Of a DNA stretch of 64,000 bases, positions 43,916-57,805 are shown in pieces. The DNA comes from a virus (Duplodnaviria > Heunggongvirae > Uroviricota > Caudoviricetes). The notes beneath the pieces are model-generated. The model made no database searches. It had not been told where the DNA came from and saw nothing but the letters and a program-made list of their open reading frames with translations. The DNA is taken from positions 25,069 through 89,068 of the IMG/VR virus record IMGVR_UViG_3300032250_000269. One strand, given 5' to 3'. The number at the start of each line of letters is the position of its first letter. Within the stretch, counting starts at the first letter, position 1. Made by a program: the position numbers and the translations under genes.

Positions 43916-43992
43916 GGGGGTATAGCCCAACAGGCAGAGGCAGGAGACTTAAAATCTCTTCAGTGCGAGTTCGAATCTCGCTATCCCTACCA
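43916..43992 (+). tRNA. tRNA, class I length; anticodon loop CTTAAAA gives apparent UAA anticodon (Leu-type) with A73
   Basis: 7-bp acceptor GGGGGTA/TATCCCT, T-arm GCGAG-TTCGAAT-CTCGC, CCA encoded. Confidence 0.6.
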
Positions 43993-44093
43993 AAGTTTAA
44001 GTTTTTCCGTTGGGTTCGATTCCCAAGGTATATAGATGGTCTTCGTCAAGGTTCGACTCCTTGATATATCGAATAAGCATGGTGGTGGATTAT

Positions 44094-44167
44094 GCCCCTA
44101 TAGTTAAATGGTATAACAGTTGCCTTGTAAGCATCAATCCACAGTTCGATTCTGTGTGGGGGCACCA
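44094..44167 (+). tRNA. tRNA-Thr (UGU) probable
   Basis: Acceptor GCCCCTA/TGGGGGC, T-loop TTCGATT, loop CTTGTAA. Confidence 0.6.
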
Positions 44168-44190
44168 GAGTAAAAGATATTTAAAGTTTT

Positions 44191-44266
44191 GGGGATATAG
44201 CTCAGTTGGGAGAGCAGTAGCTTTGCAAGCTTCAGGTCAGGAGTTCGAACCTCCTTATCTCCACCA
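44191..44266 (+). tRNA. tRNA-Ala (UGC)
   Basis: G3:U70 wobble pair, loop TTTGCAA, T-arm GGAGTTCGAACCTCC. Confidence 0.7.
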
Positions 44267-44337
44267 AGTTAGAGGTTGACATTCAATAAGCACGGAGGTA
44301 CTGTAATTGAATGTTGGCTTCGACATAATAAATTGTA

Positions 44338-44411
44338 GCGGGAGGGAGGTCTGGTATCTCACTGGTTTCATAAGCCATTAGAAGCGGTTCGAATCCGTCT
44401 CTCCGCAACCA
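44338..44411 (+). tRNA. tRNA-like (CAU loop?), structure uncertain
   Basis: T-arm GCGGTTCGAATCCGT and CCA end, but acceptor pairing is poor. Confidence 0.3.
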
Positions 44412-44513
44412 TTTATTGCTCTTTGACATTGTTAGAAAAAAAGTAATTTTACTTTAAAGATCAATTGCGGCTTCGGTCTATATATTGACGCCATTTATGG
44501 TAGTTATTTTACG

Positions 44514-44589
44514 TCTGGGAGAGGGCAAATGGCGAGCCGCTGCGTTTGGGGCGCAGAGACAGTGATTTCGAATATCACCTTCCAGACCA
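44514..44589 (+). tRNA. tRNA-Pro (UGG) probable
   Basis: Acceptor TCTGGGA/TTCCAGA, anticodon arm CTGCG-TTTGGGG-CGCAG, T-loop TTCGAAT. Confidence 0.6.
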
Positions 44590-44659
44590 TTTAGTTTTCT
44601 TGCTTTCTTTAAAAAGCAAGTGGTGGATGCTCGTATCCTAGTGATACGGCCCTAAATAT

Positions 44660-44735
44660 GGTGTCGGTAGTTCAGTGGTAGAACGGAGGCTTGTGGTGCC
44701 TCATGTCGTGGGTTCGATCCCCATCCTTCACCCCA
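44660..44735 (+). tRNA. tRNA-His (GUG) with G-1
   Basis: Anticodon arm GAGGC-TTGTGGT-GCCTC, C73 then CCA; 2 acceptor mismatches. Confidence 0.6.
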
Positions 44736-44736
44736 T

Positions 44737-44814
44737 GTCGGTGTAGCTTAGCCCGGTCTAAAGCAACGGTCTCCAAAACCGTGATCGTGAGTTCGAATCT
44801 CACCACCTTCGCCA
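44737..44814 (+). tRNA. tRNA-Trp (CCA)
   Basis: Anticodon arm ACGGT-CTCCAAA-ACCGT; T-arm GTGAG-TTCGAAT-CTCAC; 1 nt after tRNA-His. Confidence 0.6.
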
Positions 44815-44834
44815 TTTTAAACAATAGGTGATTT

Positions 44835-45272
44835 ATGATTGAAGAAGCACGGAAAGCAATATTGGCATCAAGTCAAAATTCTTCTGTTTATATCGGTGCT
44901 GATAGTATCCGTTATAAGAAAAATGGTAAGTGGTTTGCGAAGTATTCAACAGTGATTGTCCTTCACATGGATTCTAAGCATGGTTGTAGGTTGTTCAGTA
45001 AAAGCATTGATTTGCCAGACTATGGAAACTTAAAGCAACGCTTACTTACAGAAGTTGGATATGCTATCGAAGCAGCTACAGAGATTATTGATGCAGTTGG
45101 TGATCGTCATTTGGAAATCCACATTGACGTTAATCCAAATCCTAATCATAAGTCATCTGTTGCAATCAAGGAAGCCTTGGGTTATGTTAAGGGTTCTCTT
45201 GGTATAGATGCTATTCCAAAGCCACATGGTTGGGCTGCTACACATGCTGCTGATCATATAGCTAATAACTAA
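44835..45272 (+). CDS. hypothetical protein (possibly RNase-H-like fold)
   Basis: 145 aa. Confidence 0.45.
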   Translation: MIEEARKAILASSQNSSVYIGADSIRYKKNGKWFAKYSTVIVLHMDSKHGCRLFSKSIDLPDYGNLKQRLLTEVGYAIEAATEIIDAVGDRHLEIHIDVNPNPNHKSSVAIKEALGYVKGSLGIDAIPKPHGWAATHAADHIANN

Positions 45273-45280
45273 TTTTTTTG

Positions 45281-45335
45281 TTGACACTCCATTCCTTATG
45301 ATTTATAACCCATCTCATAAGGAATGGAGATTGAA
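45281..45335 (+). promoter_or_regulatory. promoter embedded in a hairpin
   Basis: TTGACA then 15-bp stem CTCCATTCCTTATGA...TCATAAGGAATGGAG with TATAAC in the loop. Confidence 0.5.
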
Positions 45336-45713
45336 ATGACTAAGCGTATTATAAATGTTTCGGTTGGTACTCCTGCTATTCGTATGGATCGTGGTAATAA
45401 TCCAAAGCCATATATTACTGATCGTGTATCAATTTATCCTGACGGCACTTCTATTGAGAGCCTAATCGACACGTTGAACAAGATTCAGGAAAAGTATGGT
45501 AATGATTATACCAACTTGAATATTGATAGCGAACGAGATTGTGGTTGTTATCACGATTGTACATGTTCGCCATCATATTATGTTTGGGGAAATCGCCTTG
45601 AAAGTGATCTTGAATACGACTATCGTATCAACGAAGAAAACTCACGCAAAGCTGAACAGGAAAAGCGTGATCGCAAGGCTTATGAAGAACTAAAGAAAAA
45701 GTTTGGTGATTGA
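45336..45713 (+). CDS. hypothetical protein
   Basis: Promoter embedded in a hairpin upstream. Confidence 0.45.
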   Translation: MTKRIINVSVGTPAIRMDRGNNPKPYITDRVSIYPDGTSIESLIDTLNKIQEKYGNDYTNLNIDSERDCGCYHDCTCSPSYYVWGNRLESDLEYDYRINEENSRKAEQEKRDRKAYEELKKKFGD

Positions 45714-45714
45714 C

Positions 45715-45903
45715 ATGCAAGATATTCTACCTAACATTTATCAGACTATCGTGACCAACTTTGGTCTTACAAAGTATACTGGTGATGATGTTGATCAGGC
45801 TATTCTGATTGCTGAACGCTGTGGATATGAATGTCACGTTCTCAAGGATGGTGCTCTGATTGGTGAATATTCTCCCATCTCTGGATGGAAGAAGTGTCGA
45901 TGA
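45715..45903 (+). CDS. hypothetical small protein
   Basis: 62 aa. Confidence 0.4.
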   Translation: MQDILPNIYQTIVTNFGLTKYTGDDVDQAILIAERCGYECHVLKDGALIGEYSPISGWKKCR

Positions 45904-46064
45904 ATATATTTGTGGTACAGCATGATCCTGATATGACCACAAACAGTAGACCATACAAGTTGTCTTATCATAAGACACGTGAAGGCGCTGAAAAATTCAT
46001 TGATGGTCATAAGTCAAATGATTGGGAATATTGGGAAATTATCCAAGTTCCATTAAAAGATTAA
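45900..46064 (+). CDS. hypothetical small protein
   Basis: 54 aa. Confidence 0.35.
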   Translation: MNIFVVQHDPDMTTNSRPYKLSYHKTREGAEKFIDGHKSNDWEYWEIIQVPLKD

Positions 46065-46069
46065 TTAGT

Positions 46070-46144
46070 GCCTGATTAACTCAGCGGTAGAGTGCTGCTT
46101 TTACACGGCAGATGCCAGTGGTTCGACCCCACTATCAGGTACCA
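46070..46144 (+). tRNA. tRNA-Val (UAC)
   Basis: Acceptor GCCTGAT/ATCAGGT, loop TTTACAC, CCA encoded. Confidence 0.65.
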
Positions 46145-46625
46145 ATTTTTTTAACCTGTATCTTTTACGATACTCACTTCTTTTAGAATTCTTTTTGTTT
46201 CTACCACAAAAAGTTTCTGTTTGTGAATGACAATTAGGACAAAGAAGTCTGAGATTTGATGGAAAGTTGTTATCAGAATTTCCATCGATATGATCTACAT
46301 GAAGAGATATAGGTTTTGATTGCCATTCGGATATACCACATTCAGTGCATTGATATCCGTACTCATTTGTTAAGTATGTTTTAAGAGTTGGTGCTTGATC
46401 AACCAAACCTTGTTCAATAAGAGGTTTAGTTACAAACTCTACCTTATATTTACCTTGACAACTGTTAGAACAATACTTACCATAAGAAGATTTTGAATCG
46501 TATGTGAATTCTATTTTGCAATATAGACAAGTGGAAGTTTTTTTCATATTATTCTCCTTAGACCCTCTATTTATACATAGAGAGTCTTTAAGAAAATTAG
46601 TTGTTGACATAGTGATGCGAATCAC
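46101..46625 (-). CDS. HNH homing endonuclease
   Basis: HVDHIDGN...NLRLLCPNCH HNH motif; its 3' end is antisense to tRNA-Val. Confidence 0.7.
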   Translation of the reverse strand: MIRITMSTTNFLKDSLCINRGSKENNMKKTSTCLYCKIEFTYDSKSSYGKYCSNSCQGKYKVEFVTKPLIEQGLVDQAPTLKTYLTNEYGYQCTECGISEWQSKPISLHVDHIDGNSDNNFPSNLRLLCPNCHSQTETFCGRNKKNSKRSEYRKRYRLKKLVPDSGVEPLASAV

Positions 46626-46640
46626 TTATAAAGGCTTCAA
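46604..46640 (+). promoter_or_regulatory. consensus promoter reading into a tRNA/ncRNA stretch
   Basis: TTGACA TAGTGATGCGAATCACT TATAAA GGCTTCAACAAA. Confidence 0.55.
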
Positions 46641-46667
46641 CAAATATATTCAAAGTTTATAAAGTTT

Positions 46668-46751
46668 TGGTCTGTGGGGGAATGGTAGACCCAACTGCCT
46701 GTTAAGCAGTCGCTTATGCAATTGCAGGTTCGAGTCCTGCCAGATCAGCCA
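46668..46751 (+). tRNA. class II-length tRNA (apparent GUU loop CTGTTAA; identity uncertain)
   Basis: Acceptor TGGTCTG/CAGATCA, T-arm GCAGG-TTCGAGT-CCTGC, 13-nt variable region. Confidence 0.5.
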
Positions 46752-47059
46752 AATTTAGTGAGTGTTATAGATAGAATGCACTATGTGTAAACTGGCCGGT
46801 TGTAACATAGTAAAGGATGACGGTTTGAGTACGCAACATGAAAACCATCTGCTCTCTATCAATGTTAACGGACCCAAAGAACGTAAGTTCACAAGCAGAG
46901 GCGCTGATAAATTCTGCATAATGCTGTCAATGTTGTGGTGACAGGCTCACTAATTCAAGTTTACTCCGCAAGTGTAGTGCACTGTAAGACGGAAGATAGA
47001 TGGGTTGGTATTAAGACCTTTGCGGTGGGGAATCCAACATAAACCGCTTTAGATTTTAT
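46752..47059 (+). ncRNA. about 300-nt ORF-free structured spacer between two tRNAs (candidate stable RNA)
   Basis: No ORF; bounded by a tRNA 3' end and the tRNA-Asp 5' end. Confidence 0.3.
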
Positions 47060-47133
47060 GGTCCTGTTTCCGTCAGGGAAGGACACCGGCTGTCTACCGG
47101 TGAAGGCGGGTTCGAGTCCCGTCAGGATCGCCA
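47060..47133 (+). tRNA. tRNA-Asp (GUC) probable
   Basis: Acceptor GGTCCTG/CAGGATC, loop CTGTCTA, T-arm GCGGG-TTCGAGT-CCCGT. Confidence 0.55.
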
Positions 47134-47277
47134 TATTATGTACAGTAGGATCGATACTGACTGTACAAAGAAAATGCTTGACTCAGCAGTATAGCGAGTC
47201 TACACATGTAAACCATGGTAAAGCAAGTGTATGAAGCGGGGTAAGAATCCTCAGACTATGGCACGGAATTTTTATGT

Positions 47278-47353
47278 GGCGCAGAACGCTAATTGGCGGG
47301 CGGATTGTTTTTCAAGCAATTGTAAGCGGGTTCGAATCCCGTCTGCGCTACCA
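47278..47353 (+). tRNA. tRNA-Glu (UUC)
   Basis: Acceptor GGCGCAG/CTGCGCT, arm ATTGT-TTTTCAA-GCAAT, T-loop TTCGAAT. Confidence 0.6.
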
Positions 47354-47368
47354 TTTTTTTTTATATGA

Positions 47369-47461
47369 GGGTGTGTTGTAGATATGGCGTGTTCTGCCCC
47401 GGACTGTAAATCCGGTCCCATGTGGTAAACAATGTAGGTTCGACTCCTACCACACCCACCA
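47369..47461 (+). tRNA. tRNA-Tyr (GUA), class II
   Basis: Acceptor GGGTGTG/CACACCC, arm CCGGA-CTGTAAA-TCCGG, long variable arm, T-arm GTAGG-TTCGACT-CCTAC. Confidence 0.65.
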
Positions 47462-47564
47462 GTTTATGTGCAGTAAAATCCCCTGTTGTGGGTTGGGAGC
47501 TATTAGGGCTTTTTTTGGTTGGTTTGATTCCATCACTGCACACCAGTTTGAGAGGATATATTAT

Positions 47565-48057
47565 GTTGAAATATGTTAAGGGTGATCTTATTGGACTAGC
47601 ACTTGATGGTGAGTTTGATGTTATCGTCCATGGTTGTAATTGTTTCAACACAATGGGTCGTGGTATTGCATATACTATTGCAAAAAGGTTTCCTCAATCA
47701 TATGAAGCTGATACGAAAACCATCAAGGGTGATTATAACAAGCTTGGTAATTATACGAAGGCAACAGGGTTTACAAAAACCAATCCTGTAGAAAACTTTC
47801 AGATCATCAATGCATATACTCAGTACGGTTGTGATGCTCGTAAGAGTGTTGATGTTTTTGAGTATGTCGCATTTGATATGATCTTACAGAAGCTTGTAAA
47901 TGAATTTCCCAAGGCTAGATTTGGTCTTCCTTTGATTGGAATGGGACTAGCTGGTGGTGACAAGACAGTAATTATGAAGAAGATTGAGGAGTTTGCAAAA
48001 ACTATTTCAAATTCTGGTGGATCAGTAACCATGGTAGAATTTTCAATGTCTATGTAA
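47565..48057 (+). CDS. macro-domain protein (ADP-ribose binding / de-ADP-ribosylation)
   Basis: GDLIGLALDGEFDVIVHGCNCFNTMGRGIA resembles the macro GDIT...AIVNAAN...GGGV core; start at internal ATG after tRNA-Tyr. Confidence 0.6.
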
Positions 48058-48065
48058 AATAGTTG

Positions 48066-48122
48066 TTGACGGATGTTTCGAATCTTGGTACAAGAGTGCA
48101 TCAAGACGAAAGGAACTTTCTA
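48066..48122 (+). promoter_or_regulatory. promoter (TTGACG) plus conserved leader
   Basis: TTGACG ...CGAATC... then GCATCAAGACGAAAGGAAC. Confidence 0.55.
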
Positions 48123-48353
48123 ATGTCTACTGAACTCAAGGGTGTTACTGGTCGTACTGGTAAAGTTTCGATGCTTAGCTTTTTTGGCGGTAAGGAAGAC
48201 GGAAGGTGCGTTCAAATGACTTTCAGGAAGCCTGATGAAGAAAAGTGCAGCAGCCGGTACTGGTATCTGCAACTGACTAAAGAAGAAGCACTGGAAATGG
48301 CGGTTGCGCTGGTCCAGTTTGCTAATGGAACTAGAGAAGAAGTTTTTGACTGA
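48123..48353 (+). CDS. hypothetical small protein
   Basis: Consensus promoter and leader upstream. Confidence 0.45.
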   Translation: MSTELKGVTGRTGKVSMLSFFGGKEDGRCVQMTFRKPDEEKCSSRYWYLQLTKEEALEMAVALVQFANGTREEVFD

Positions 48354-48370
48354 TTAATGTAAAATAGTTG

Positions 48371-48418
48371 TTGACATAAAGACAACGAATCGCTATAATC
48401 AGTTCAACAAAAAGTTAA
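48371..48418 (+). promoter_or_regulatory. consensus promoter driving the large non-coding region
   Basis: TTGACA TAAAGACAACGAATCGC TATAAT CAGTTCAACAAA. Confidence 0.6.
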
Positions 48419-49622
48419 ATGGCGGTGTAGCGTCATTAGGGTAAGGTCGGGTAACTGATCCCAAAGCAAGTTCTCCTACAGAATTGCGCCAGAAATGGTC
48501 CATCTATGCAAGCCTGAACAAACCCGAAAGGGTCCGTCAGTAGAATGGCGGTAGGCAGTAAGTAGTGGTCGAAGGTCCGAAAGGATAGGTTACAGAGCCA
48601 AATCGGTGAGTAATTAAACGGGGTGGTACCTGTGCCAAGGCATACCAACACTATGATTGCTGAATGTTAACAGGTAGTTATTAAGTCTGACCCTGCAAGG
48701 AAAGGCAAGATAGCAGTCACAAAGTTAAAGGGATGACCGGAGACTTGAATGATCGTTGAGTAGTTCGCAAGACGAAAGACAGGAGGTGTGCAGTATTTTG
48801 TATCCCAAAAGGATATGAAGCAGCAGTAGCAGCACATCTTGGTAGGTTAACCTTTGCGGGTAGCTCATTGGTAGAGCAAATGTCTCTTAAACATTAGGTA
48901 GTGGGTTCGATTCCCATGTCGCATATCATAACGATATAAAACGCAAAGACTGCTACGGTACTATGTGAAAGGTGCTTAATACCACACTCGAAAGGGAATG
49001 TGGTTCATGGAGGTTCGCAAGACTGAAGTGATTGTTCGGATTGAAGACGTAAGGGCTTAGCGGCTCCTAACTGCTCTAAAGGTAGGCGGAAGATTGAGGG
49101 ACGAATAGCATAGTGCGACAGGTCACAAGCCAGACCTTAAAAAAGGCAGCACTGGAAGGTACTAGATGACCGTAAAAGGCTCTAGTGGATAACGGGTTAA
49201 CGATCCTCGCAAGGGACTCGGTACGGCTCAAAGACTTCCACATGAAGCAGTAATCTCATGCTTCGTAAATAAGACTGTTTAGATGAGCACATTATACATT
49301 AGAAGGTTTTTTTATCTCCTTACTTTTAATGCATGTGGTTCGGAGACACTTATAGTGTGTTCTTCTAAACAGTTTTGGTGAACACATAGGTTCCTGTCAG
49401 TGTTGTGAGGACAGGGTAATACATCAACACTATCCCTGTGTGTTCATCTAAACTGTTTTAGACTTGTTTCGCTATTACTGCATTTTACGGTTGCAAACGT
49501 CAAAAGTAGTTTAGTGTAAGGCAGCATTCCGCCCGACAATAACCCTCTACGTGACGATAGGGTGGCGGTATGGGTTTCGAAGTCCCATTGCTATATTGCA
49601 GTAATAGCGTAACAAGTTTAAT
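48419..49622 (+). ncRNA. about 1.2 kb ORF-free, highly structured transcribed region (candidate large ornate ncRNA(s); one tRNA-like unit embedded at 48854-48925)
   Basis: Begins right after consensus promoter 48371-48418; no ORF >= 60 aa on + strand; several CGAAAG/GCAAG tetraloop-like hairpins; nested long inverted repeats at 49276-49470. Confidence 0.45.
48854..48925 (+). tRNA. tRNA-Lys-like (CUU loop CTCTTAA), acceptor pairing imperfect
   Basis: D-arm GCTCATTGGTAGAGC, arm AATGT-CTCTTAA-ACATT, T-arm GTGGG-TTCGATT-CCCAT; embedded at the end of a 450-nt non-coding stretch. Confidence 0.4.
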
Positions 49623-49697
49623 GCCAGTATAGCTCAGCGGTAGAGTAGGGGACTCATATTCCCTTGGTCGCTAGTTCGATCCTAGCTACTGGCACCA
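49623..49697 (+). tRNA. tRNA with CAU anticodon (Met or Ile-lysidine)
   Basis: Acceptor GCCAGTA/TACTGGC, loop CTCATAT, T-loop TTCGATC. Confidence 0.65.
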
Positions 49698-49761
49698 ATT
49701 TATGGGCTGACGGTCTAGAACCCGTTGAGCATCGAAAGATGTAGTCAGTCCACCATATTAT

Positions 49762-49837
49762 GCCCCTGTAGCTCAGTTGGTAGAGCACTTGATTGAAGAT
49801 CAGGGTGTCAGCGGTTCAATTCCGTTTGGGGGCACCA
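49762..49837 (+). tRNA. tRNA-Phe (GAA)
   Basis: Arm CTTGA-TTGAAGA-TCAGG, T-arm AGCGG-TTCAATT-CCGTT, acceptor ends TGGGGGC-A-CCA. Confidence 0.65.
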
Positions 49838-49971
49838 AAGTTTGGGTCTAAATAGAGTAAATAGGGAACCTATTGAATGTCGAACTGCTGGTAAAACCGT
49901 TAAATGTCACCTATGACATGCAGGACACAAGACCCAATTCATTTAATAATTAACTTGACGAGGAAAACATA

Positions 49972-50535
49972 ATGAATAATAATTTACCATATCATCTAGG
50001 TGGCCATGAAAATCATACTCATATTGATGAAGGCGCTCTTGATTTCTTGATTGAACGTTATGACGCTAAGTCATTTCTTGATGTTGGTTGTGGTCCCGGT
50101 GGGATGGTCGATCTAGCTATTGAAAAAGGCTTGATTGCCCATGGTGTTGATGGTGATTTTACCGTAGTTCGCAAGAACGCTCAGAATATTACTATTCATG
50201 ATTATGTTACAGGCCCTGTAACGCTTGATAGAAATTATGACATAGGATGGTCTTGTGAATTTCTAGAGCATGTTGAAGAAGTCTATATGGCTAATTATAT
50301 GGATACCTTCAAGTATTGTAAGGCTATTGCGGTTACACATGCTTTTCCTAATCAACCCGGTCATCATCATGTGAATTTGAAGAACCCAGAATATTGGATT
50401 GAAAAGTTTTCTCTTTTTGGTTTTTCACAAGATATTGAAGCAACAAAGATAATTCGTGAAAAGTCAACAATGGGTAATGAATACATTCGTGTAAGTGGTC
50501 TTGTATTCACAAACACAAATTATAATAAAGCATAA
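49972..50535 (+). CDS. class I SAM-dependent methyltransferase
   Basis: Motif I LDVGCGPGGM; inside the tRNA island. Confidence 0.7.
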   Translation: MNNNLPYHLGGHENHTHIDEGALDFLIERYDAKSFLDVGCGPGGMVDLAIEKGLIAHGVDGDFTVVRKNAQNITIHDYVTGPVTLDRNYDIGWSCEFLEHVEEVYMANYMDTFKYCKAIAVTHAFPNQPGHHHVNLKNPEYWIEKFSLFGFSQDIEATKIIREKSTMGNEYIRVSGLVFTNTNYNKA

Positions 50536-50536
50536 T

Positions 50537-50655
50537 AAGCAGTACACTGTCCTGACCGTGAGGAAGGAAACTCGCAACGCTGAAAAATACCTAACGGTAA
50601 TGTCTTTGACAGTGCGAAAAGTTGGTACAAGACTGCGGGACCAACAGTGTACTAT
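50537..50655 (+). ncRNA. about 120-nt structured leader immediately upstream of tRNA-Ile
   Basis: Long-range inverted repeat GCAGTACACTGTCCTGACC...GGGACCAACAGTGTACTATGC. Confidence 0.3.
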
Positions 50656-50730
50656 GCACCATTAGCTCAGTAGTAGAGCATTCGCCTGATAAGCGAAAGG
50701 TGACAGGGGCGGTACCTGTATGGTGCACCA
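50656..50730 (+). tRNA. tRNA-Ile (GAU) with atypical T-loop
   Basis: Acceptor GCACCAT/ATGGTGC, arm TTCGC-CTGATAA-GCGAA; T-loop GGCGGTA lacks TTC. Confidence 0.55.
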
Positions 50731-50788
50731 TTTATTAAAACTCTGTATGGGCGGTCGAATAAAAGACTAGTAAAATCTATACATATCA

Positions 50789-50865
50789 TGGCCGTGTAGC
50801 CCAACTGGAAGAGGCGTCTGGTTTAGGTCCAGAATGTTGGGAGTTCGAATCTCTCCACGGCTACC
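50789..50865 (+). tRNA. class I-length tRNA with apparent UAG anticodon (Leu-type), A73
   Basis: Acceptor GGCCGTG/CACGGCT, arm TCTGG-TTTAGGT-CCAGA. Confidence 0.55.
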
Positions 50866-50870
50866 ATTTA

Positions 50871-50948
50871 TACTCCCATAGCTCAACTGGAATAGAGCAC
50901 TTGATTACGAATCAAGAGGTTACGGGTTCGAATCCTGTTGGGAGTACC
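50871..50948 (+). tRNA. tRNA-Arg (ACG)
   Basis: Acceptor ACTCCCA/TGGGAGT, arm CTTGA-TTACGAA-TCAAG, T-loop TTCGAAT. Confidence 0.65.
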
Positions 50949-51022
50949 AAAAATATATATTACATTTTCATTACATTGTTTCATTTTTATTATAAATAAT
51001 AAGACATGAAAGGAGATGTTCA

Positions 51023-51148
51023 ATGTATGTAACATATATAATTCTAGGTATTATCATAGGTCTTGGTGTATGCTCAGTATTTGCTCTTAGCGAATATAGT
51101 GCATCAAAAAAACTTAAATGTGTTTTAAATATACCTCAACATAGTTGA
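51023..51148 (+). CDS. small hydrophobic peptide (41 aa)
   Basis: RBS AAAGGAG; single TM. Confidence 0.3.
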   Translation: MYVTYIILGIIIGLGVCSVFALSEYSASKKLKCVLNIPQHS

Positions 51149-51209
51149 ATGCTGTCATAGGTAGCAGTCTTTATAAATAGTAAGAAAACTATTTCAATAA
51201 GGATTGAAA

Positions 51210-51914
51210 ATGAAATCATATACAGAATTTTTAGAAGAATCACTTATCAAGCAACTTACTCTGAAGTATCATAATAGGCTTAATCCAAAGATTTGGAAAG
51301 GTGATCAACTTAGAGATGGATTTGCTGAAAAACTCGTTGAAAAAGCATATGAATTTGCTTCTTACTCAGGAGTTTCTAAAGGTCGTATCAAAGATATCGT
51401 CATCACAGGCGGTAATGTCAACTACAACTATACGAAGTTCTCAGATATCGATGTTCACTTGATGTGTGATGTAAGTGGTTTAGACAGCGACAAGCTTTAT
51501 GAAAAAAAAGTGTCATGGACAGCCAGTCATAAGAATTTGAAGGTTGCAGGGTATCCAATAGAGTTTTATGCTGCTAATGACAAAGATCATTTTCCAAATG
51601 GACAGGGTGTTTATTCTATTCTTGAAAACAAATGGTTGATTGTTCCAAAGCATCTTGATCATGTGGATGTTTTGCGTGATCCAAAGGTGATTGACAAAAT
51701 CAACTATTATGTTAAGTATATCAGAACACTGTTAAAGAGCGGTACAGAAGCAGAAATTAAGGCTTTTAAAGACAAGCTACATACAATGCGTGGTTCTGGA
51801 TTGCATCATGGTGGTGAATTTTCGGTTGAGAATGTTGTCTATAAAGACCTTCGAAATCGTGGATTGTTAGATAAATTAAATGCAAAAATTCATCATAAAG
51901 GTGAAGAAGTTTAA
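51210..51914 (+). CDS. Pol-beta-fold nucleotidyltransferase with CTS-like N-terminus
   Basis: GGNVNYNYTKFSDIDVHL (G[GS]..DhD) plus later acidic residue; N-terminus MKSYTEFLEESL resembles T4 MKTYQEFIAEA. Confidence 0.6.
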   Translation: MKSYTEFLEESLIKQLTLKYHNRLNPKIWKGDQLRDGFAEKLVEKAYEFASYSGVSKGRIKDIVITGGNVNYNYTKFSDIDVHLMCDVSGLDSDKLYEKKVSWTASHKNLKVAGYPIEFYAANDKDHFPNGQGVYSILENKWLIVPKHLDHVDVLRDPKVIDKINYYVKYIRTLLKSGTEAEIKAFKDKLHTMRGSGLHHGGEFSVENVVYKDLRNRGLLDKLNAKIHHKGEEV

Positions 51915-51919
51915 AGTTT

Positions 51920-51991
51920 GCGGGTAAGCATAAGGTATGCAGCCGGTCTTCCAAACCGTGCATGGAGTGAGTTCGATTCTCATTATCCGCT
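51920..51991 (+). tRNA. tRNA-Gly (UCC) probable; no encoded CCA
   Basis: Acceptor GCGGGTA/TATCCGC, loop CTTCCAA, T-arm TGAG-TTCGATT-CTCA. Confidence 0.5.
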
Positions 51992-52059
51992 CATAGAGTT
52001 CCAGAAAATTATAAATAGGTAGTAAGTAAAACCTAATATAATTTTCTGGAACTATAAAC

Positions 52060-52707
52060 ATGAAGTACACCATATATCAAATAATCAATACTATCAATAG
52101 CAAGATTTATATTGGAAAACATCAAACTAATGATATTGATGATGGATATATGGGTTCTGGTAAAAATTTAAAACGAGCCATAAAAAAATATGGTATTGAA
52201 AATTTTGTAAAAGAAGTTCTTTATGTATTTGACTCTGAAGAAGATATGAATTATAAAGAAGCTGAATTAGTAACTGAAGAATTTTGCTTACGTGAAGACA
52301 CATACAATATATGTGTTGGTGGTCATGGTGGGTTTAGTCATATCAACTTAGATGAAAACTTTAGAAAAAATAAAAATAAAAAGGCCAGACGAGTAACTGA
52401 TAGTATTTTAAAAATAAAATACGGTGTTAAAAATCCATCTCAAATAGATTTTGTCAAACAAAAACTTTCTATAAAAATGAAAGAAAGATGGCGTGATGGT
52501 AAAATATCTTTACCGCCAACACCTTTTTTAGGAAAATCTCATTCATTAGAAACTAAGAAAAAAATGAGTGAATCTAAAAAAGGAAAATTTACTGGTGAAA
52601 AAAATTCACAATATGGTACAATGTGGATAACCAATGGAAATATAAATAAAAAAGTAAAGTGTGATGATATCATCCCTGATGGATGGTATAAAGGAAGATT
52701 AAAATAA
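52060..52707 (+). CDS. GIY-YIG homing endonuclease (Seg-like)
   Basis: YQIINTINSKIYIGKH...GYMGSG; C-terminal NUMOD-like basic repeats. Confidence 0.7.
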   Translation: MKYTIYQIINTINSKIYIGKHQTNDIDDGYMGSGKNLKRAIKKYGIENFVKEVLYVFDSEEDMNYKEAELVTEEFCLREDTYNICVGGHGGFSHINLDENFRKNKNKKARRVTDSILKIKYGVKNPSQIDFVKQKLSIKMKERWRDGKISLPPTPFLGKSHSLETKKKMSESKKGKFTGEKNSQYGTMWITNGNINKKVKCDDIIPDGWYKGRLK

Positions 52708-52809
52708 TAGTTTGATATGAATACAATGCGCTTAGTCGCTGTCGCAATGTCATACAACATTCGTACCAATACGTGCGGTACAGTATTTTTTTTTTTGTGA
52801 GATGATTAT

Positions 52810-54063
52810 ATGCTAAAGAATGCTTATATCTTATACCATAATTCACCAAAATCTATCGAATATTTACAAGATTGTATAGATTCATGTAATCAATTCCCTA
52901 ACATTCTTGCAATTCCTTTTGCTGGTCCAAGCGGAACAAATTGTGTGGATTCTTGTAATGAGTTTGGTATTCATATTATTCCTCATTATCTAAATCAAAT
53001 GAGTGCTAGACAAAAAGAATTCAATAATTCTTTCTCTTGCAGTATCGGTCATTATCGTATTTGGAGAGAAATTGTAAAGACTAATGAACCGGCTGTTGTT
53101 CTTGAGCATGATGCAGTTGTCAAGCAAGACTTTACAACTCTAGAACCAGTTGATGGCGAAATTCTATGGCTTGGTCCACGTATTCTTAATATGGATGACT
53201 ATACCTATCCTGTTGGATGGGAAAACAAGTATGTAGAAGTTGATCGTTGGGAAGGCACACATGCCTATGCAATCACTCCAAAAACTGCACAAATTCTCCT
53301 TGATTATGTACAAGAATATGGTATCAATGATTCGATTGATGGCCAGCTTGGCATGAGAAATATGTTTGATATGCGTATGAGGGCTGCTGATCCACCACCA
53401 GTAGTAGCTGTTGTTTCTGGTGATCGACAGTCAACAATTGAGCTAAGTGGTAGTGCTGCTTCGTGGAATGCATATAATACAGAAGGATTTCTTGCTGGAT
53501 TGAAGTCTGGATTACAACCACCTCCTGTTCGTCAGTTATATTTTACTGATAATAGTTTTATGAAACACACTGGTGTTTTGGATGCTATTTTTAAGGATAA
53601 TGGTTTTTACGAAAACCATCCATTGAAGGTTCTTGTTCTTGGTGGAAAAGAAGGTATGTCAACTCTATGGCTAAGCAATAAGTTGCTTCGTCATGATGAC
53701 AGTCAGTTATTTTGTGCTGGTGGTTTTGACAATAAAAACTGGCAAATTTTCAATTTTAACACATACTTCAGTAAGTATTACTACAAGCTAAATTCAATTA
53801 ATTGTAATGATGTTACTGATCTTTTGGTTGCAAGTTGTGCTGATCCTGATATTGAGTTTGATGTTGTGTACGTAGATTGTAACACAAATACCAAGGATAC
53901 TGTATTTGATGGAATCGCTTCTATCAAGATGTTGAGAGGTGATGGTATTATTATTTTTAATAACTATGATAATCCAACCGTAAAGGCTGGTGTTGATATT
54001 ATTGAAAATGCATCGGGTGTGATTTCACTTTACAAGGGTGATATTGCAGTATTTCAATATTGA
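52810..54063 (+). CDS. GT25-family glycosyltransferase (LPS/LOS beta-glycosyltransferase-like) with extra C-terminal domain
   Basis: N-terminal ILYHNSP...SIGHYRIWREIV...VVLEHDAV resembles the GT25 (Lic2B/LgtB) core. Confidence 0.55.
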   Translation: MLKNAYILYHNSPKSIEYLQDCIDSCNQFPNILAIPFAGPSGTNCVDSCNEFGIHIIPHYLNQMSARQKEFNNSFSCSIGHYRIWREIVKTNEPAVVLEHDAVVKQDFTTLEPVDGEILWLGPRILNMDDYTYPVGWENKYVEVDRWEGTHAYAITPKTAQILLDYVQEYGINDSIDGQLGMRNMFDMRMRAADPPPVVAVVSGDRQSTIELSGSAASWNAYNTEGFLAGLKSGLQPPPVRQLYFTDNSFMKHTGVLDAIFKDNGFYENHPLKVLVLGGKEGMSTLWLSNKLLRHDDSQLFCAGGFDNKNWQIFNFNTYFSKYYYKLNSINCNDVTDLLVASCADPDIEFDVVYVDCNTNTKDTVFDGIASIKMLRGDGIIIFNNYDNPTVKAGVDIIENASGVISLYKGDIAVFQY

Positions 54064-54070
54064 CAGGTGT

Positions 54071-54144
54071 TGCCCTGTCGTCTAAAGGTAGGACAGGTGG
54101 TTTTGATCCATCTAATTGGGGTTCGAATCCCTGCGGGGCATCCA
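54071..54144 (+). tRNA. tRNA-Gln (UUG)
   Basis: Acceptor TGCCCTG/CGGGGCA, arm GGTGG-TTTTGAT-CCATC, T-loop TTCGAAT. Confidence 0.6.
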
Positions 54145-54171
54145 AAATAAACTTTATAATGGAGAATGATT

Positions 54172-54519
54172 ATGTCTAAGACTATTACTGATGTTGTTGC
54201 CGAGAAGATTGCTGAAATTTCACCAGCAGTTAATGATAAGGTTATCGATGCTCTTGTAGCTCGTGAACTTGATAAGCGTTCAGATGCTATTCTAGCAGGA
54301 CTAGATAAGCTTAATTCTCTGAAGAATGATCTTAAGAAGATCAAGCCTGATGTTGGTGGTTACTTCGATGAAGATGGTAACGAGACCAAGCCAATGCAGT
54401 ATAGCAAGGCAAAGTTTGAAGAGCTTAAGAAGGGCAAGGAACAGATTGATAAGGTGCAGAAGGCGCTTGATCTTGCAATTGACAAGGGCGATATGTCAAA
54501 GCTGTATGATTTGAAGTAA
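54172..54519 (+). CDS. hypothetical coiled-coil protein
   Basis: 115 aa. Confidence 0.45.
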   Translation: MSKTITDVVAEKIAEISPAVNDKVIDALVARELDKRSDAILAGLDKLNSLKNDLKKIKPDVGGYFDEDGNETKPMQYSKAKFEELKKGKEQIDKVQKALDLAIDKGDMSKLYDLK

Positions 54520-54520
54520 T

Positions 54521-54877
54521 ATGAATACGGAAGAGATGTTCCAAGAGGTTGAGCGTAGAGTAACGGATAGTCTTTTGGAACATCTTATTCCAAAGGCTAT
54601 AAACAAACACGCCAAATCAAAAACACACTTTCATAATTGTGACTGTAACTATTGTCACATGAAGAAAGAAGCCACACGCAATATTGCTCATGTAGTCTTT
54701 CCAAAAGATTGTGAGCGTCCCATAATCAATAATGGTATTGTTACTGCTATTGATCCTGTTACATTTGATCCAATAGTGATTGGTGGAGAATGTGAACCAT
54801 GGGAAGTCAAAGACATATTGCGTAAAAATTTACGTGAACATTATCGTAACAAATTGAAGGAATTATATGATGAGTGA
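54521..54877 (+). CDS. hypothetical protein (Cys/His cluster HNCDCNYCH)
   Basis: 118 aa. Confidence 0.45.
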   Translation: MNTEEMFQEVERRVTDSLLEHLIPKAINKHAKSKTHFHNCDCNYCHMKKEATRNIAHVVFPKDCERPIINNGIVTAIDPVTFDPIVIGGECEPWEVKDILRKNLREHYRNKLKELYDE

Positions 54878-55106
54878 TAACATTTCTGCAAATCAACTAC
54901 TACAGTACATTGAACGTATTGAACGTATCGAAGAAGAACTTGATGGTATCAAGGGTGATCGTAAGGACGTATATGCTGAAGCAAAGGCAGTAGGGTTTGA
55001 TACTAAGGCAATGCGTAAGATTGTACGTATTCGCAAGCTTGATCCTACACAACGTCAAATGGAAGAGGCGATAGAAGAAACCTATCGCACTGCACTAGGT
55101 CTCTGA
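54867..55106 (+). CDS. hypothetical small protein
   Basis: 79 aa; strong hairpin terminator follows. Confidence 0.45.
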   Translation: MMSDNISANQLLQYIERIERIEEELDGIKGDRKDVYAEAKAVGFDTKAMRKIVRIRKLDPTQRQMEEAIEETYRTALGL

Positions 55107-55111
55107 TATTT

Positions 55112-55147
55112 GTTCAACCCCTGCCTAAAAAACAGGGGTTGAACTTT
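55112..55147 (+). terminator. hairpin terminator
   Basis: GTTCAACCCCTG-CCTAAAAAA-CAGGGGTTGAAC perfect 12-bp stem, weak T tract. Confidence 0.6.
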
Positions 55148-55176
55148 AATAAATATACTAAAAGAAAGGAAACAAA

Positions 55177-55818
55177 ATGAAAACTTTTAGTGCATTTATT
55201 TCAGAAAATCGTGAAAACAACACACGTAAGACACAGGTTGCCACAACTGGTGGCACCTATAAAAAAACAGGCGAATTCCTTAAGGATAAGCTTGCTCCTA
55301 AGTCAAAGATCATCAGTATTGGTGCTGGTTTAGATCAGACACGTGAAGGTCTTCATGTAGGGCTTGGCGAAAATCATGGTCATACTATTCATGATCATGA
55401 ACCACACCCTGAAGGACGTAAGGTTAAGCCAGAATACACAGATGCATCACGCATTCCAAAGAATGGATATCATGCTGCTGTATCACATAACGTTTTGAAT
55501 GTTGTCGAGCCACATGTACGTGAACACGTAATGCATTCTATCTTCAATTCCGTTAAGGAAGGTGGTCATGCTGTTATTGGCACACGTAAATGGAGTGGCG
55601 ATATCAACACAAACAAGAACTTTGAAAAGGGTGATGAACCTAAATCAATGTGGGTCAAGAGAGGAAATACCACATCATATCAAAAAGGATATGATGGTAA
55701 TGAACTGAAGGACTATGTTGAAGATTATGCAAAGCGCAATGGTCATAAGGTTGAAGTTAAAAATTTAAACGGTATTGCAAAAAGTGGTGTTCACGTAAAA
55801 ATTATAAAAAAGGGTTGA
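55177..55818 (+). CDS. His-rich protein with CTS-like N-terminus
   Basis: MKTFSAFISE N-terminus; 213 aa. Confidence 0.5.
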   Translation: MKTFSAFISENRENNTRKTQVATTGGTYKKTGEFLKDKLAPKSKIISIGAGLDQTREGLHVGLGENHGHTIHDHEPHPEGRKVKPEYTDASRIPKNGYHAAVSHNVLNVVEPHVREHVMHSIFNSVKEGGHAVIGTRKWSGDINTNKNFEKGDEPKSMWVKRGNTTSYQKGYDGNELKDYVEDYAKRNGHKVEVKNLNGIAKSGVHVKIIKKG

Positions 55819-55869
55819 CACCCACCTCAGAATCGCATATTAAGAGTTCATACAGCGATGGAGGAAAGT
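55815..55869 (+). promoter_or_regulatory. consensus promoter
   Basis: TTGACA CCCACCTCAGAATCGCA TATTAA GAGTTCATACA. Confidence 0.5.
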
Positions 55870-56010
55870 ATGAAGACACGTAATCCGATTGCCCGCTCTC
55901 TTCGTAGCGCACATCTTAAACCTAAGATTGTTCGTGCAAAGAAGGGCAAAGGTTCTTACCGCCGTAAGAAAAAAGTTACGGCGGTTGACTTTCTTCAGCG
56001 AATCGCTTAA
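55870..56010 (+). CDS. small basic peptide, possibly ArfA-like ribosome-rescue factor
   Basis: 46 aa; KKGKGSYRRKKK resembles the E. coli ArfA KGKGSYMRKGK segment (recalled, not searched). Confidence 0.4.
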   Translation: MKTRNPIARSLRSAHLKPKIVRAKKGKGSYRRKKKVTAVDFLQRIA

Positions 56011-56040
56011 AAGAATTTTGAGACAAACGGAGATTATATT

Positions 56041-56373
56041 ATGACTGATTGTTATTGGTATAGGCGAGGAAAATATCAGCAACTTGCTGAAGCTCTTCAA
56101 ACCCGAATTCCCGTGGATGGTGAAGTTCCAAATAAGGATGAAAATCCTAAGCTTGAAGAGTATCGTAAGGTTGCTAATCAGTACTACGACCTTTTCAATA
56201 ATGGTCTTCATAATCAGCCTTATCACTTTAAACGCCGTTTTGGTGTTACTGTGGTAGAAGCTCGTTCTATACTTCGTGTTGGCGGAATTCTTGAATGTGA
56301 TATTCTTCGCACGATTGAATCAAGCGTTGACAACTTTATTCTTGAAGCTGCACGTGAACAGGGATTGATCTAA
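56041..56373 (+). CDS. hypothetical protein
   Basis: 110 aa. Confidence 0.45.
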   Translation: MTDCYWYRRGKYQQLAEALQTRIPVDGEVPNKDENPKLEEYRKVANQYYDLFNNGLHNQPYHFKRRFGVTVVEARSILRVGGILECDILRTIESSVDNFILEAAREQGLI

Positions 56374-56654
56374 TGGAAATTATTAGCCCTCGTGATCAGT
56401 ACGGATGGATTACGGCAATCATTGAAGGTCGATGGGTTCAAGCAAAGGTTTATGACTTACCTTCTTATTATGGCGTTTATGATGGTCGTGTGTCAAAGAT
56501 TTCTATTGGTAAGCCACGTTATCGTGATCCTACTCAAAACTTTTTTGAACAGATGTGTTATAATTATGACCGTGGTTTGGATTTTGATGAAGCACCTGAA
56601 GGACTGGTTCAAAAGATTGTAGCAGAGTTGGAAAAGCTTCCTCCTCTTGATTAA
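56373..56654 (+). CDS. hypothetical protein
   Basis: 93 aa. Confidence 0.45.
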   Translation: MEIISPRDQYGWITAIIEGRWVQAKVYDLPSYYGVYDGRVSKISIGKPRYRDPTQNFFEQMCYNYDRGLDFDEAPEGLVQKIVAELEKLPPLD

Positions 56655-56673
56655 AAATAAAACAAAATAAGTG

Positions 56674-56730
56674 TTGACATAAAGCTATCGAATCGTTATA
56701 AAGAGTTCAACAAAGCAAATGGAGATTGAC
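56674..56730 (+). promoter_or_regulatory. consensus promoter
   Basis: TTGACA TAAAGCTATCGAATCGT TATAAA GAGTTCAACAAAGC. Confidence 0.6.
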
Positions 56731-56952
56731 ATGAGCCGTACTCGTCGTAATGGTTGGACCGCTGTCACTGGTTCTGATGTAGATAATCGTGGTATCAAGC
56801 ATCATGCTACCAATGATTGGTTTTCTAAGAAGAATGCCTGTCGTGGTACTTCTGATGATAGCTGGGATGAATATTGGGGTCGTGATAAGAGCACTGTGAA
56901 GAAGATCACTCGTCGTGCCACACGCCGTCATCTCAATTCAGACTGTTTTTGA
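56731..56952 (+). CDS. hypothetical small basic protein
   Basis: Consensus promoter upstream. Confidence 0.45.
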   Translation: MSRTRRNGWTAVTGSDVDNRGIKHHATNDWFSKKNACRGTSDDSWDEYWGRDKSTVKKITRRATRRHLNSDCF

Positions 56953-56960
56953 TAATTAAT

Positions 56961-57037
56961 GGACATGTAGCTCAGTAGGTAGAGCAGGGGACTCTTAATC
57001 CCAAGGTCGATGGGTTCAAATCCCTCCATGTCCACCA
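56961..57037 (+). tRNA. tRNA-Lys-like (CUU loop CTCTTAA)
   Basis: Acceptor GGACATG/CATGTCC, T-arm ATGGG-TTCAAAT-CCCTC, CCA. Confidence 0.55.
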
Positions 57038-57170
57038 GTTTGCGGTAAGACTAACACCAACTTATTATTCTATGCATTATCCTGAGTGTTAGAGTGGGTA
57101 TGATTAGGAATAATAAGCCCAAAGTAAGGCGTACCGGAATGCGTCGGAAAAGGTGCCGCAATTTAGTTTT

Positions 57171-57247
57171 GGCCCCATGGTGTAAATAGTAGAGCATACG
57201 AGTCTCTCAAATTCGTGATCCGGGTTCGCATCCCGGTGGGGCCACCA
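57171..57247 (+). tRNA. tRNA-Glu (CUC) probable
   Basis: Acceptor GGCCCCA/TGGGGCC, arm CGAGT-CTCTCAA-ATTCG, T-arm CCGGG-TTCGCAT-CCCGG. Confidence 0.55.
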
Positions 57248-57253
57248 CAAATT

Positions 57254-57329
57254 GGACCATTAGCTCAGTAGGTAGAGCAAGGGGCTTTTAACCTCTGTGT
57301 CGTTGGTTCGAACCCAACATGGTCCACCA
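57254..57329 (+). tRNA. tRNA-Lys (UUU)
   Basis: Acceptor GGACCAT/ATGGTCC, loop CTTTTAA, T-arm GTTGG-TTCGAAC-CCAAC. Confidence 0.6.
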
Positions 57330-57350
57330 TTTTTATAAAGGATATATATT

Positions 57351-57530
57351 ATGAAGTATGTTATTGTTGCTATTCTTGCTATTTCTCTTGCTGCTTGTGG
57401 TAAGATGGATCAGATGCAAGCACATTATACCGGATATTCAAAGATTTGTGTTGACCATGTTCAGTACATTCAGTTTACATCTGGTGCTGCTGTTCAAGTA
57501 GATACAGACGGTAAGCCTGTAGGTTGTTAA
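57351..57530 (+). CDS. small lipoprotein (59 aa)
   Basis: MKYVIVAILAISLAAC signal with lipobox; below track size cut-off. Confidence 0.4.
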   Translation: MKYVIVAILAISLAACGKMDQMQAHYTGYSKICVDHVQYIQFTSGAAVQVDTDGKPVGC

Positions 57531-57552
57531 ATTATAAGGAAACATAAAATAT

Positions 57553-57723
57553 ATGACATGTAGAACTCAGACATTACTTAGCCTTATTGAACGACGAAAT
57601 TCATGTTGGGCAATGGCTAAAGTTTTCTTAGAAAATGAGGATGCTCATGGCATACATGATATGGGTGTAGAAATACAAGCTCTTGATAGAGCAATTAAAG
57701 AAATTGAAAAGATTACATTTTAA
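57553..57723 (+). CDS. hypothetical small protein
   Basis: 56 aa. Confidence 0.35.
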   Translation: MTCRTQTLLSLIERRNSCWAMAKVFLENEDAHGIHDMGVEIQALDRAIKEIEKITF

Positions 57724-57729
57724 GTTAAT

Positions 57730-57805
57730 GCTCCTGTAGCTCAACGGTTAGAGCAGTCGCCTCATAAGCGATTGGTTGTAGGTTCGAATCCTACCGGGAG
57801 CACCA
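57730..57805 (+). tRNA. tRNA with CAU anticodon (candidate tRNA-Ile2/lysidine substrate), directly upstream of tilS
   Basis: Acceptor GCTCCTG/CGGGAGC, arm GTCGC-CTCATAA-GCGAT, T-arm GTAGG-TTCGAAT-CCTAC. Confidence 0.65.

Follow-up and report, generated by a model that had tools for sequence, protein, structure and literature searches.

The GOLLD match and its promoter

We analyzed a 64,000-nucleotide (nt) stretch of DNA from a virus of the class Caudoviricetes (IMG/VR record IMGVR_UViG_3300032250_000269, positions 25,069 to 89,068; hereafter the window). Here we describe its interval 48371-49622, which very probably holds a new copy of the large phage RNA GOLLD with a promoter of its own, a defective tRNA look-alike inside it, and a separate 360-base hairpin tail that is not part of GOLLD. 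The interval is enclosed by 28 co-oriented tRNA genes at 43916-62200. The window has a G+C content of 38.7% and carries nucleotide-metabolism and helicase genes of kinds typical of phages, namely those for a ribonucleotide reductase (55-61% identity to assorted phages), a UvrD-type helicase (49% identity to Brevundimonas siphophages), and NAMPT, which have their best matches in phages. When the window was compared with the INPHARED/GenBank phage genomes by megablast, blastn, and tblastn, only tRNA-sized matches and a Caulobacter segment with GOLLD and tRNA-Lys were found; the phage that carries the window was not itself found at the DNA level in this collection. With its phage-type genes, its block of tRNA genes, and relatives that lie on viral contigs, the locus has the phage-encoded, tRNA-adjacent setting of GOLLD.

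GOLLD RNA was reportedly described by Weinberg et al. in 2009, and the structure of the GOLLD cage was solved in 2025. The original prediction for this interval, made from the letters of the DNA, had proposed an RNA of the GOLLD or ROOL class and had suggested a comparison with Rfam models using Infernal. This comparison was positive for GOLLD. Positions 48783-49262 on the plus strand, which make up the universally conserved half of the RNA, or 3' domain, match Rfam family RF02032 with a cmscan score of 172 bits (gathering threshold of 150 bits, E value of 1.5e-46), and the match is untruncated and covers model positions 1-416. The same 3' domain is 72-87% identical to those of the GOLLDs at loci L056, L086, L085, L025, and L019, which score 187-213 bits, and the relatives' scores overall lie between 171 and 213 bits, including that of the cultured Caulobacter phage CcrKarma (171.2 bits). 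The original prediction had set aside transfer-messenger RNA (tmRNA) and RNase P RNA, and no Rfam model for either of these or for group I/II introns matched. The ROOL half of the proposal did not hold, since the ROOL model has no match at its gathering score anywhere in the window and none at E ≤ 1 in 48000-50000. By these sequence comparisons, the RNA encoded at 48409-49263 is a member of an already known class of giant phage non-coding RNA.

Upstream of the 3' domain lie 374 bases, at 48409-48782 on the plus strand, that correspond to the variable half of GOLLD, the 5' domain, which forms the cap in the solved cages. Relatives were collected by a pattern scan of viral contigs for the GOLLD 3' end, which gave at least 119 loci. 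Iterated nhmmer searches found at least 22 full-length homologues of 48409-48782, each of which immediately precedes a GOLLD 3' domain recognized by Rfam, and about a quarter of the GOLLD loci listed have this 5'-domain sequence type. For an alignment of 18 of these sequences, RNAalifold predicts 86 base pairs, 66 of which show compensatory changes. Standard pairs are formed in 96.4% of the paired cells, compared with 31-39% when the partners are slid by one to three columns, and none of 500 shuffles reached the observed values. The GNRA-like hairpins noted in the original prediction are present, and several of the GNRA-type loops cap covarying stems; the hairpin GUCC-GAAA-GGAU at 48575-48586 is invariant in 18/18 relatives, and a GUU-CGCAA-GAC hairpin lies at 48763-48773. 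Thus, a variable 5' domain is joined to a conserved 3' domain, as in GOLLDs of about 800 nt, to give a total of 855 nt. Comparison with related phages, also suggested at the outset, found 48409-49263 to be conserved in many viral contigs with compensatory changes, the opposite of the lack of conservation that had been named as grounds for abandoning the idea.

These data also bear on whether the region might code for a protein on the minus strand or be an unstructured spacer between tRNA genes, to which we give practically no credence. An antisense open reading frame (ORF) of 71 amino acids (aa) does exist at 48436-48651, and relatives have stop-free antisense stretches of 49-93 aa. However, antisense stops are few because the sense strand is purine-rich, and the lengths of 91 of the 111 gaps in the alignment are not divisible by three, an indel phase that rules out the 71-aa ORF. 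The compensatory changes in the plus-strand RNA pairs (66/86) and the strength of the Rfam match (E 1.5e-46) speak against both forms of this explanation. On the plus strand, no ORF of 60 aa or more is found in 48354-49971, the longest being 32 aa, in agreement with the original prediction.

The limits of the gene follow from its relatives. The closest among the matches listed, L056 (on the same contig as L199), is 87.5% identical over 48409-49263; its homology ends after 49263 and resumes only at tRNA-Met (49610). In other relatives, which are 72-79% identical, the alignment runs from 48417-48420 to 49262-49296, so that over five relatives the homology starts at 48409-48420 and ends at 49262-49296. 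The RF02032 model and the 833-nt env-38 GOLLD RNA both stop at the position equivalent to 49262. Given these limits of homology and covariation, the gene is about 855 nt long and spans 48409-49263, and the length of more than 1.2 kb first proposed for the RNA was not confirmed.

The promoter at the head of the interval was recognized correctly in the original prediction. It occupies 48358-48399 on the plus strand and consists of a conserved upstream motif, TGTAAAATAGTTGTTGAC, that overlaps the -35 element TTGACA (48371), a 17-nt spacer, and the -10 element TATAAT, which ends at 48399. All 12 of the 12 sigma-70 consensus positions agree, and this is the sole perfect match in 47500-50600. The promoter is kept in L056 as TTGACA-17-TATACT, in a segment that aligns to 48355-48411. 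Transcription would start near 48406, and the conserved RNA begins about 7 nt past the promoter. GOLLD is characteristically expressed as a discrete large RNA whose level rises in lytic growth; of this, the promoter is what the sequence displays. A terminator scan of 47500-50600 found no terminator-like site, and none between GOLLD and the downstream tRNA-Met and tRNA-Phe genes. The interval ends directly at a tRNA with a CAU anticodon, as had been noted. This is tRNA-Met(CAU) at 49623-49697 on the plus strand (ARAGORN and Rfam, 66.5 bits), which sets the downstream boundary of the finding and would be the next gene in the GOLLD transcription unit.

The motif TGTAAAATAGTTGTTGAC has a second exact copy at 48053, and similar promoters recur in the window. 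We observed at least seven copies of a promoter family with the arrangement TTGTTGACA...GAATC spacer...TATAAT-like -10, often accompanied by the upstream motif TGTAAAATAG, at plus-strand positions 87, 18846, 19828, 20543, 27964, 46600, 48053, and 48368. These are probably the early promoters of the phage, used by the host polymerase.

The tRNA-like unit in the GOLLD linker

The original prediction placed a tRNA-like unit at 48854-48925, and both ARAGORN and Rfam recover it, at 48853-48927 on the plus strand. It is a 'Lys' module with the anticodon CUU and lies in the GOLLD linker J13/15, within the linker/insertion region of RF02032. Its cloverleaf matches RF00005 with 53.1 bits, compared with a gathering threshold of 29 bits. 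The acceptor stem (UUGCGGG/GUCGCAU) has two mismatches, U1·U72 and G7·G66, and is followed by A73 with no encoded CCA. The unit thus lacks both the full 7-bp acceptor stem and the 3' CCA of a canonical tRNA. A separate, canonical tRNA-Lys(CUU) with an encoded CCA is present in the window at 56961-57037.

Embedded units of this kind were found in the linkers of 24 of the 120 distinct GOLLD loci among the matches listed, and we compared these 24 units with the 551 free tRNAs of the same loci. A fully paired 7-bp acceptor stem is found in 0/24 embedded units and in 469/551 free tRNAs (Fisher p = 2e-19). The first nucleotide is G in 2/24 and 409/551, respectively, most embedded units beginning with U, and CCA is encoded in 4/24 compared with 350/551. 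The G+C content of the acceptor stem is 35% in embedded units and 65% in free tRNAs. Among loci that share the 5'-domain type described here, the free tRNAs encode CCA in 172 of 184 cases (93%), and most linkers in this subfamily carry a tRNA-like unit, with the anticodons CTT, TTT, TCT, TAG, GAT, TTG, CTA, and TCA. The stop-reading anticodons CTA and TCA occur in L048 and L022, and the units of L015 (CTT) and L097 (TAG, on a class-I body) differ essentially just in the anticodon loop.

Could the unit at 48853-48927 nevertheless be an ordinary, functional tRNA-Lys(CUU) that RNase P and 3' nucleases cut out and the host supplies with CCA, the GOLLD simply tolerating the insertion? Its good cloverleaf (53.1 bits against 29), its intact D, anticodon, and T arms, and an A73 as in tRNA-Lys would suit such a role, and units of this type are often called tRNAs in the literature (PMC12286853). 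We nonetheless judge this unlikely. The unit combines two acceptor mismatches with a U start and no CCA, in a subfamily whose free tRNAs encode CCA in 172/184 cases; the acceptor stem is incomplete in all 24 embedded units; the window already has the canonical tRNA-Lys(CUU) with CCA; and some relatives present a 'Leu(TAG)' version on a class-I body. In addition, the pseudo-tRNA of a mycobacterial GOLLD is not detectably expressed on its own (PMC6582537).

The unit would instead be a poor substrate for RNase P and for aminoacylation. Most likely it remains covalently attached within the cage, where it would be a tRNA mimic or a stored unit, and is not released as a working tRNA. That the embedded units are crippled in exactly the features required for maturation and charging argues that they work as part of the cage. 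Two points from the literature are related to this contrast. A pseudo-tRNA inside a mycobacterial GOLLD was reported to give no separate transcript (PMC6582537), and the idea of 'inhibited storage' has been raised for GOLLD-embedded tRNA (PMC12990946). The comparison of embedded with free units extends both the single-case report and the storage idea, and the systematic crippling of the embedded units may be a new side finding.

The hairpin tail and the spacers that follow it

Between the GOLLD gene and tRNA-Met lies a strongly structured tail (49263-49622), which folds at -123.5 kcal/mol with a z-score of -8.8; none of 100 shuffles folded as well. The nested inverted repeats noted in the original prediction are present here, with 49271-49296 pairing with 49351-49376, 49367-49390 with 49435-49458, and 49458-49487 with 49592-49621. 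They do not serve as evidence for GOLLD, since they lie outside it and are absent from L056. By sequence comparison, the tail is not GOLLD and consists of three separate modules, which we refer to as HA, HB, and HC: L056 lacks the tail, and related modules are found elsewhere with no adjoining GOLLD. A blastn search of the whole tail against at least 119 GOLLD loci gave no matches, and when the tail was scanned with Rfam at E ≤ 10, nothing came up beyond chance similarities to microRNA hairpins, HA being in no Rfam family.

The alternative in which all of 48371-49622 is a single ornate RNA, with the inverted repeats and the T-arm-like hairpin as integral parts, is highly unlikely. This alternative would accommodate the single promoter, the lack of any predicted terminator within the interval, the very strong structure of the tail (z = -8.8), and the HA-type hairpins found immediately after GOLLD in many relatives. 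It would leave unexplained that L056, at 87.5% identity over GOLLD, has nothing in common with 49264-49609, that HA-type hairpins are also found between ordinary tRNAs and upstream of GOLLD, that HC is found in L125 with no adjoining GOLLD, and that both the RF02032 model and the env-38 RNA stop at the equivalent of 49262.

The first module, HA, is a 'punctuation hairpin' at 49270-49377 on the plus strand with the lower stem AGACUGUUUAGAUGAGCACA / UGUGUUCUUCUAAACAGUUUU, a folding energy of -38.3 kcal/mol, and a z-score of -6.8. The lower-stem consensus of the family is AGACUNNUUAGAUGARYRCA ... UGYRUUCUUCUAANNAGUUUU, in which the core UAGAUGA/UCUUCUA with its U·U mismatch is invariant and the apical part is wholly variable. 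We found 49 distinct instances at 37 loci among the matches listed, which include loci in the series L201-L243. The hairpin lies about 10 nt past the GOLLD 3' end in at least nine relatives (L015, L019, L025/L085, L097, and L201-L204), upstream of the GOLLD 5' end in L025, L086, and L204, and upstream of ordinary tRNAs in L120-L125 and other loci. A tRNA starts no more than 15 nt downstream in 30 of the 49 instances, mostly after 0-7 nt. In a sample selected by a filter on pairing, 10 of the 21 stem pairs show double changes. When 30 pattern matches were taken unfiltered, pairing was seen at 196 of the 210 free positions, compared with 160 ± 3.7 (maximum 171) after shuffling of the partners. 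L056 lacks both HA and HB and has a different, 157-nt stem-closed spacer instead.

We also considered that HA, HB, and HC are elements of the DNA, either insertions resembling miniature inverted-repeat transposable elements or protein-binding iterons of a replication origin or regulator. Conservation that is higher in the arms than in the interiors, a 20-nt motif that occurs four times in alternating orientation and is confined to the tail, presence or absence that varies among close relatives, and a flanking direct repeat would all fit such elements. What makes them decidedly unlikely is the relation of the hairpins to transcription. All 49 hairpins are co-oriented with the tRNA genes, of which 602 share the strand of the hairpins and 0 lie on the other, and they sit at a fixed 0-7 nt upstream of position +1 of a tRNA. 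Moreover, the G·U pairs and the U·U mismatch of HA fit the transcribed strand only, the other strand having C·A and A·A in their place, and the flanking stem positions covary.

HA was also considered as an intrinsic terminator and rejected: none was found in the scan, the U-run lies within the stem, and in most relatives a tRNA follows 0-7 nt later. In L088 a canonical terminator occupies the slot of HA, so that HA may have a role in termination or pausing. Returning to HA as an RNA element, the family may be a new processing or 3'-end-protection signal, one that brackets GOLLDs and tRNAs and probably defines their ends. The U·U punctuation hairpin family may also be a new side finding.

The second module, HB (49365-49460, plus strand), overlaps and reuses the 3' arm of HA. 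Its core is GGUGA/UCAUC, with a U-A pair replacing the U·U mismatch, and it folds at -37.5 kcal/mol (z = -4.7). The direct repeat 49355-49376 / 49438-49459 has 91% identity, and HB has no homologue in any locus among the matches listed. HB is a local variant or duplicate of HA.

The third module, HC (49456-49622, plus strand), abuts tRNA-Met and has a 24-bp closing stem, 49458-49483 with 49597-49621, around an interior of about 113 nt. Its sole homologue among the matches listed is at L125 8232-8401 (identical to L126), with 78.5% identity, on a 360-kb phage contig where it lies within a tRNA island and has no adjoining GOLLD. The 15-mer TACGGTTGCAAACGT yielded 72 loci, all of which were chance matches save L125 and L126. 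Between HC and L125 the clamp is nearly invariant, and the interior has three compensatory pairs; alone, the interior gives a fold no more stable than those of shuffled sequences (z = +0.45). The T-arm-like hairpin of the original prediction, AUGGG-UUUCGAAGU-CCCAU, is present, but its loop has 9 nt and not the canonical 7, and it lies outside GOLLD; its L125 homologue has a canonical T arm.

Two further identities for HC were rejected. As a tmRNA or true tRNA it gives nothing with ARAGORN at default settings or in tmRNA mode, and a tRNA is called in the interior only at 70% of the default thresholds, with 21-23 extra nt in the anticodon loop. As a YrlA/Y-RNA-like element (a long stem plus a tRNA-like module) it is without Rfam support, and a scan of 10 ORFs turned up no Ro/TROVE protein; two large HEAT-repeat proteins gave no TROVE match. 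The latter are adjacent proteins of 726 and 545 aa encoded on the plus strand at 36192-38372 and 38391-40028, just upstream of NAMPT and the tRNA island, and match HEAT-repeat Pfam families. HEAT-repeat proteins are unusual in phages. The 726-aa protein has no tblastn match in the phage collection.

Several other structured spacers were observed in the vicinity. Between tRNA-Met and tRNA-Phe, a 52-nt element at 49704-49755 has an 8-bp acceptor-like stem, GGGCUGAC/GUCAGUCC, with G3·U70 followed by A and CCA, and encloses two small hairpins. The combination of G3·U70, A, and CCA is the identity set common to tRNA-Ala and tmRNA. In L202 and L204 the element shows 95% conservation, and one of its pairs has changed in a compensatory way (U-A to C-G); neither ARAGORN, tmRNA mode included, nor Rfam calls it. 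After tRNA-Phe, a stem-closed spacer of about 95 nt at 49842-49937 (UUGGGUCU ... AGACCCAA) precedes a methyltransferase-like gene and folds weakly better than shuffles (z = -2.2). In L201, L203, L019, L015, and L097, the first tRNA past GOLLD is followed, about 90-230 nt beyond the GOLLD 3' end, by a conserved element some 130-150 nt long, which has the closing sequences GACCACCU ... AGGUGGUC and also contains GUCCGGACGUAA. It is absent from the window and had no Rfam match in L019 and L015, the loci scanned.

Comparison with known GOLLDs and proposed working of the locus

Cryo-electron microscopy structures are available for the GOLLDs env-38 (PDB 9MEE, a 14-mer) and Streptococcus agalactiae (9L0R, a 12-mer), and the cage with its lumen-facing linker is described in both reports (PMC12286853, PMC12990946). 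In env-38 the 5' domain, which is separate and less conserved, takes up residues 1-420 and the 3' domain residues 421-833; the linker, at residues 497-538, is disordered and points into the lumen of the cage (PMC12286853). The RNA described here has the same plan, with a full conserved 3' domain, a separate variable 5' domain (about 375 nt), and a variable linker after the first hairpin of the 3' domain. As with known GOLLDs, it lies in a phage tRNA island and has no coding potential, and its length of about 855 nt compares with 833 nt for env-38. ROOL RNAs are likewise large and ornate, are found near phage tRNA islands, and form RNA-only cages, but their sequence and fold are unrelated.

Caulobacter phiCbK-like phages (CcrKarma, JX100811) and the loci L086, L015, and L025 have the same kind of GOLLD, with a Lys(CUU) unit in the linker and in a tRNA cluster. 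The Caulobacter phages, which are already in the published GOLLD alignment, differ in that identity is just ~67% over the P13/14 hairpin and the tRNA. In CcrKarma, moreover, predicted rho-independent terminators and an annotated tRNA-Cys follow from about 200 nt past GOLLD, in place of HA-type hairpins. The CcrKarma GOLLD (L197 2546-3032) is not annotated in its GenBank record, and a permuted tmRNA (L197 1719-2037, minus strand; Rfam, 71.9 bits) lies about 500 nt upstream of it. Mycobacterial tRNA-array GOLLDs (PMC6582537; Morgado 2020, cited in PMC12990946) likewise have a J13/15 tRNA-like unit that apparently does not mature, which fits the idea of inhibited storage. They differ in lying on bacterial chromosomes or prophages and in having Phe or pseudo identities.

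For the tail, the closest likenesses are by analogy only. Like the RNase III R sites of phage T7, HA and HB are long, sequence-related hairpins with an internal mismatch located between the genes of what would be a polycistronic transcript, and like ribosomal RNA processing stalks, HC encloses RNA within a long duplex of flanking sequences. No sequence similarity connects these sites or stalks to HA, HB, or HC. HA, HB, and the HC clamp do have the features of RNase III-type hairpins, being long duplexes in intergenic positions, and cleavage there is a proposal only.

Based on these comparisons, we propose the following sequence of events. Host RNA polymerase would make GOLLD, the tail, tRNA-Met, and tRNA-Phe as a single RNA. 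Cutting by RNase P at the tRNA 5' end, or by a double-strand-specific nuclease in the long stems, would then free a GOLLD that carries a stable, protective 3' hairpin. By homology to env-38 and S. agalactiae, about 12-14 copies of the GOLLD would assemble by themselves, with no protein, to give a dihedral nanocage that has the 3' domains as its ring, the 5' domains as its caps, and the linker J13/15 pointing into the lumen. A tRNA mimic with no CCA would thereby be tethered in the lumen of the cage.

Several points weigh against this account. The RF02032 score exceeds the gathering threshold by just 22 bits, although the GOLLDs of relatives score higher. The 5'-domain type of 48409-48782 also differs from env-38 in that its nhmmer profile has no match in the env-38 5' domain, the env-38 sequence used being incomplete (813/833 nt); GOLLD 5' domains are known to diverge, and the result agrees with this. 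The acceptor-stem register assigned by ARAGORN to the embedded units could be slightly off. L056, the closest listed relative, has neither the tRNA-like unit nor the HA hairpin, and GOLLD can therefore do without either. In HA, just 4 U follow the lower stem, which is rich in A/U. The start site, the co-transcription of the tRNAs, and all of the processing steps are deductions, and cage formation and copy number are predictions by homology, known GOLLDs having 10, 12, or 14 copies as set by the 5' domain.

Well-delimited natural GOLLD variants are of some value, even though the locus by itself is one more GOLLD that Rfam finds. It offers a GOLLD whose sigma-70 promoter is clean and whose 5' end is defined, and L056 provides the contrast of a close relative that differs by the linker tRNA-like unit and the 3' hairpins. 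The crippled embedded units and the bracketing hairpins bear on what the cage contains and how it is manufactured.

As to the role of the cage, our best guess is that it manipulates translation or the tRNA pool late in infection. GOLLD is constantly linked to tRNA islands and the mimic varies in its anticodon, both of which point to translation or the tRNA system. A bolder version, which is tentative and unlikely, holds that in this lineage the cargo is not a stored tRNA and is instead a permanently immature tRNA mimic with no CCA and a weak acceptor stem, present in 12-14 copies in the lumen, whose anticodon changes freely from one near-identical body to the next (CUU, UUU, UCU, UAG, GAU, and the stop-reading CUA and UCA), and that the ends of the RNA are set by the previously undescribed U·U-hairpin family, which would punctuate phage operons of tRNAs and GOLLD. 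If this were true, the U·U-mismatch hairpin would define a new class of RNA-processing signal in phages, and GOLLD would be a multivalent device for presenting anticodons, which could serve as a decoy or sponge that binds anticodon nucleases, enzymes that modify tRNAs, or ribosomes.

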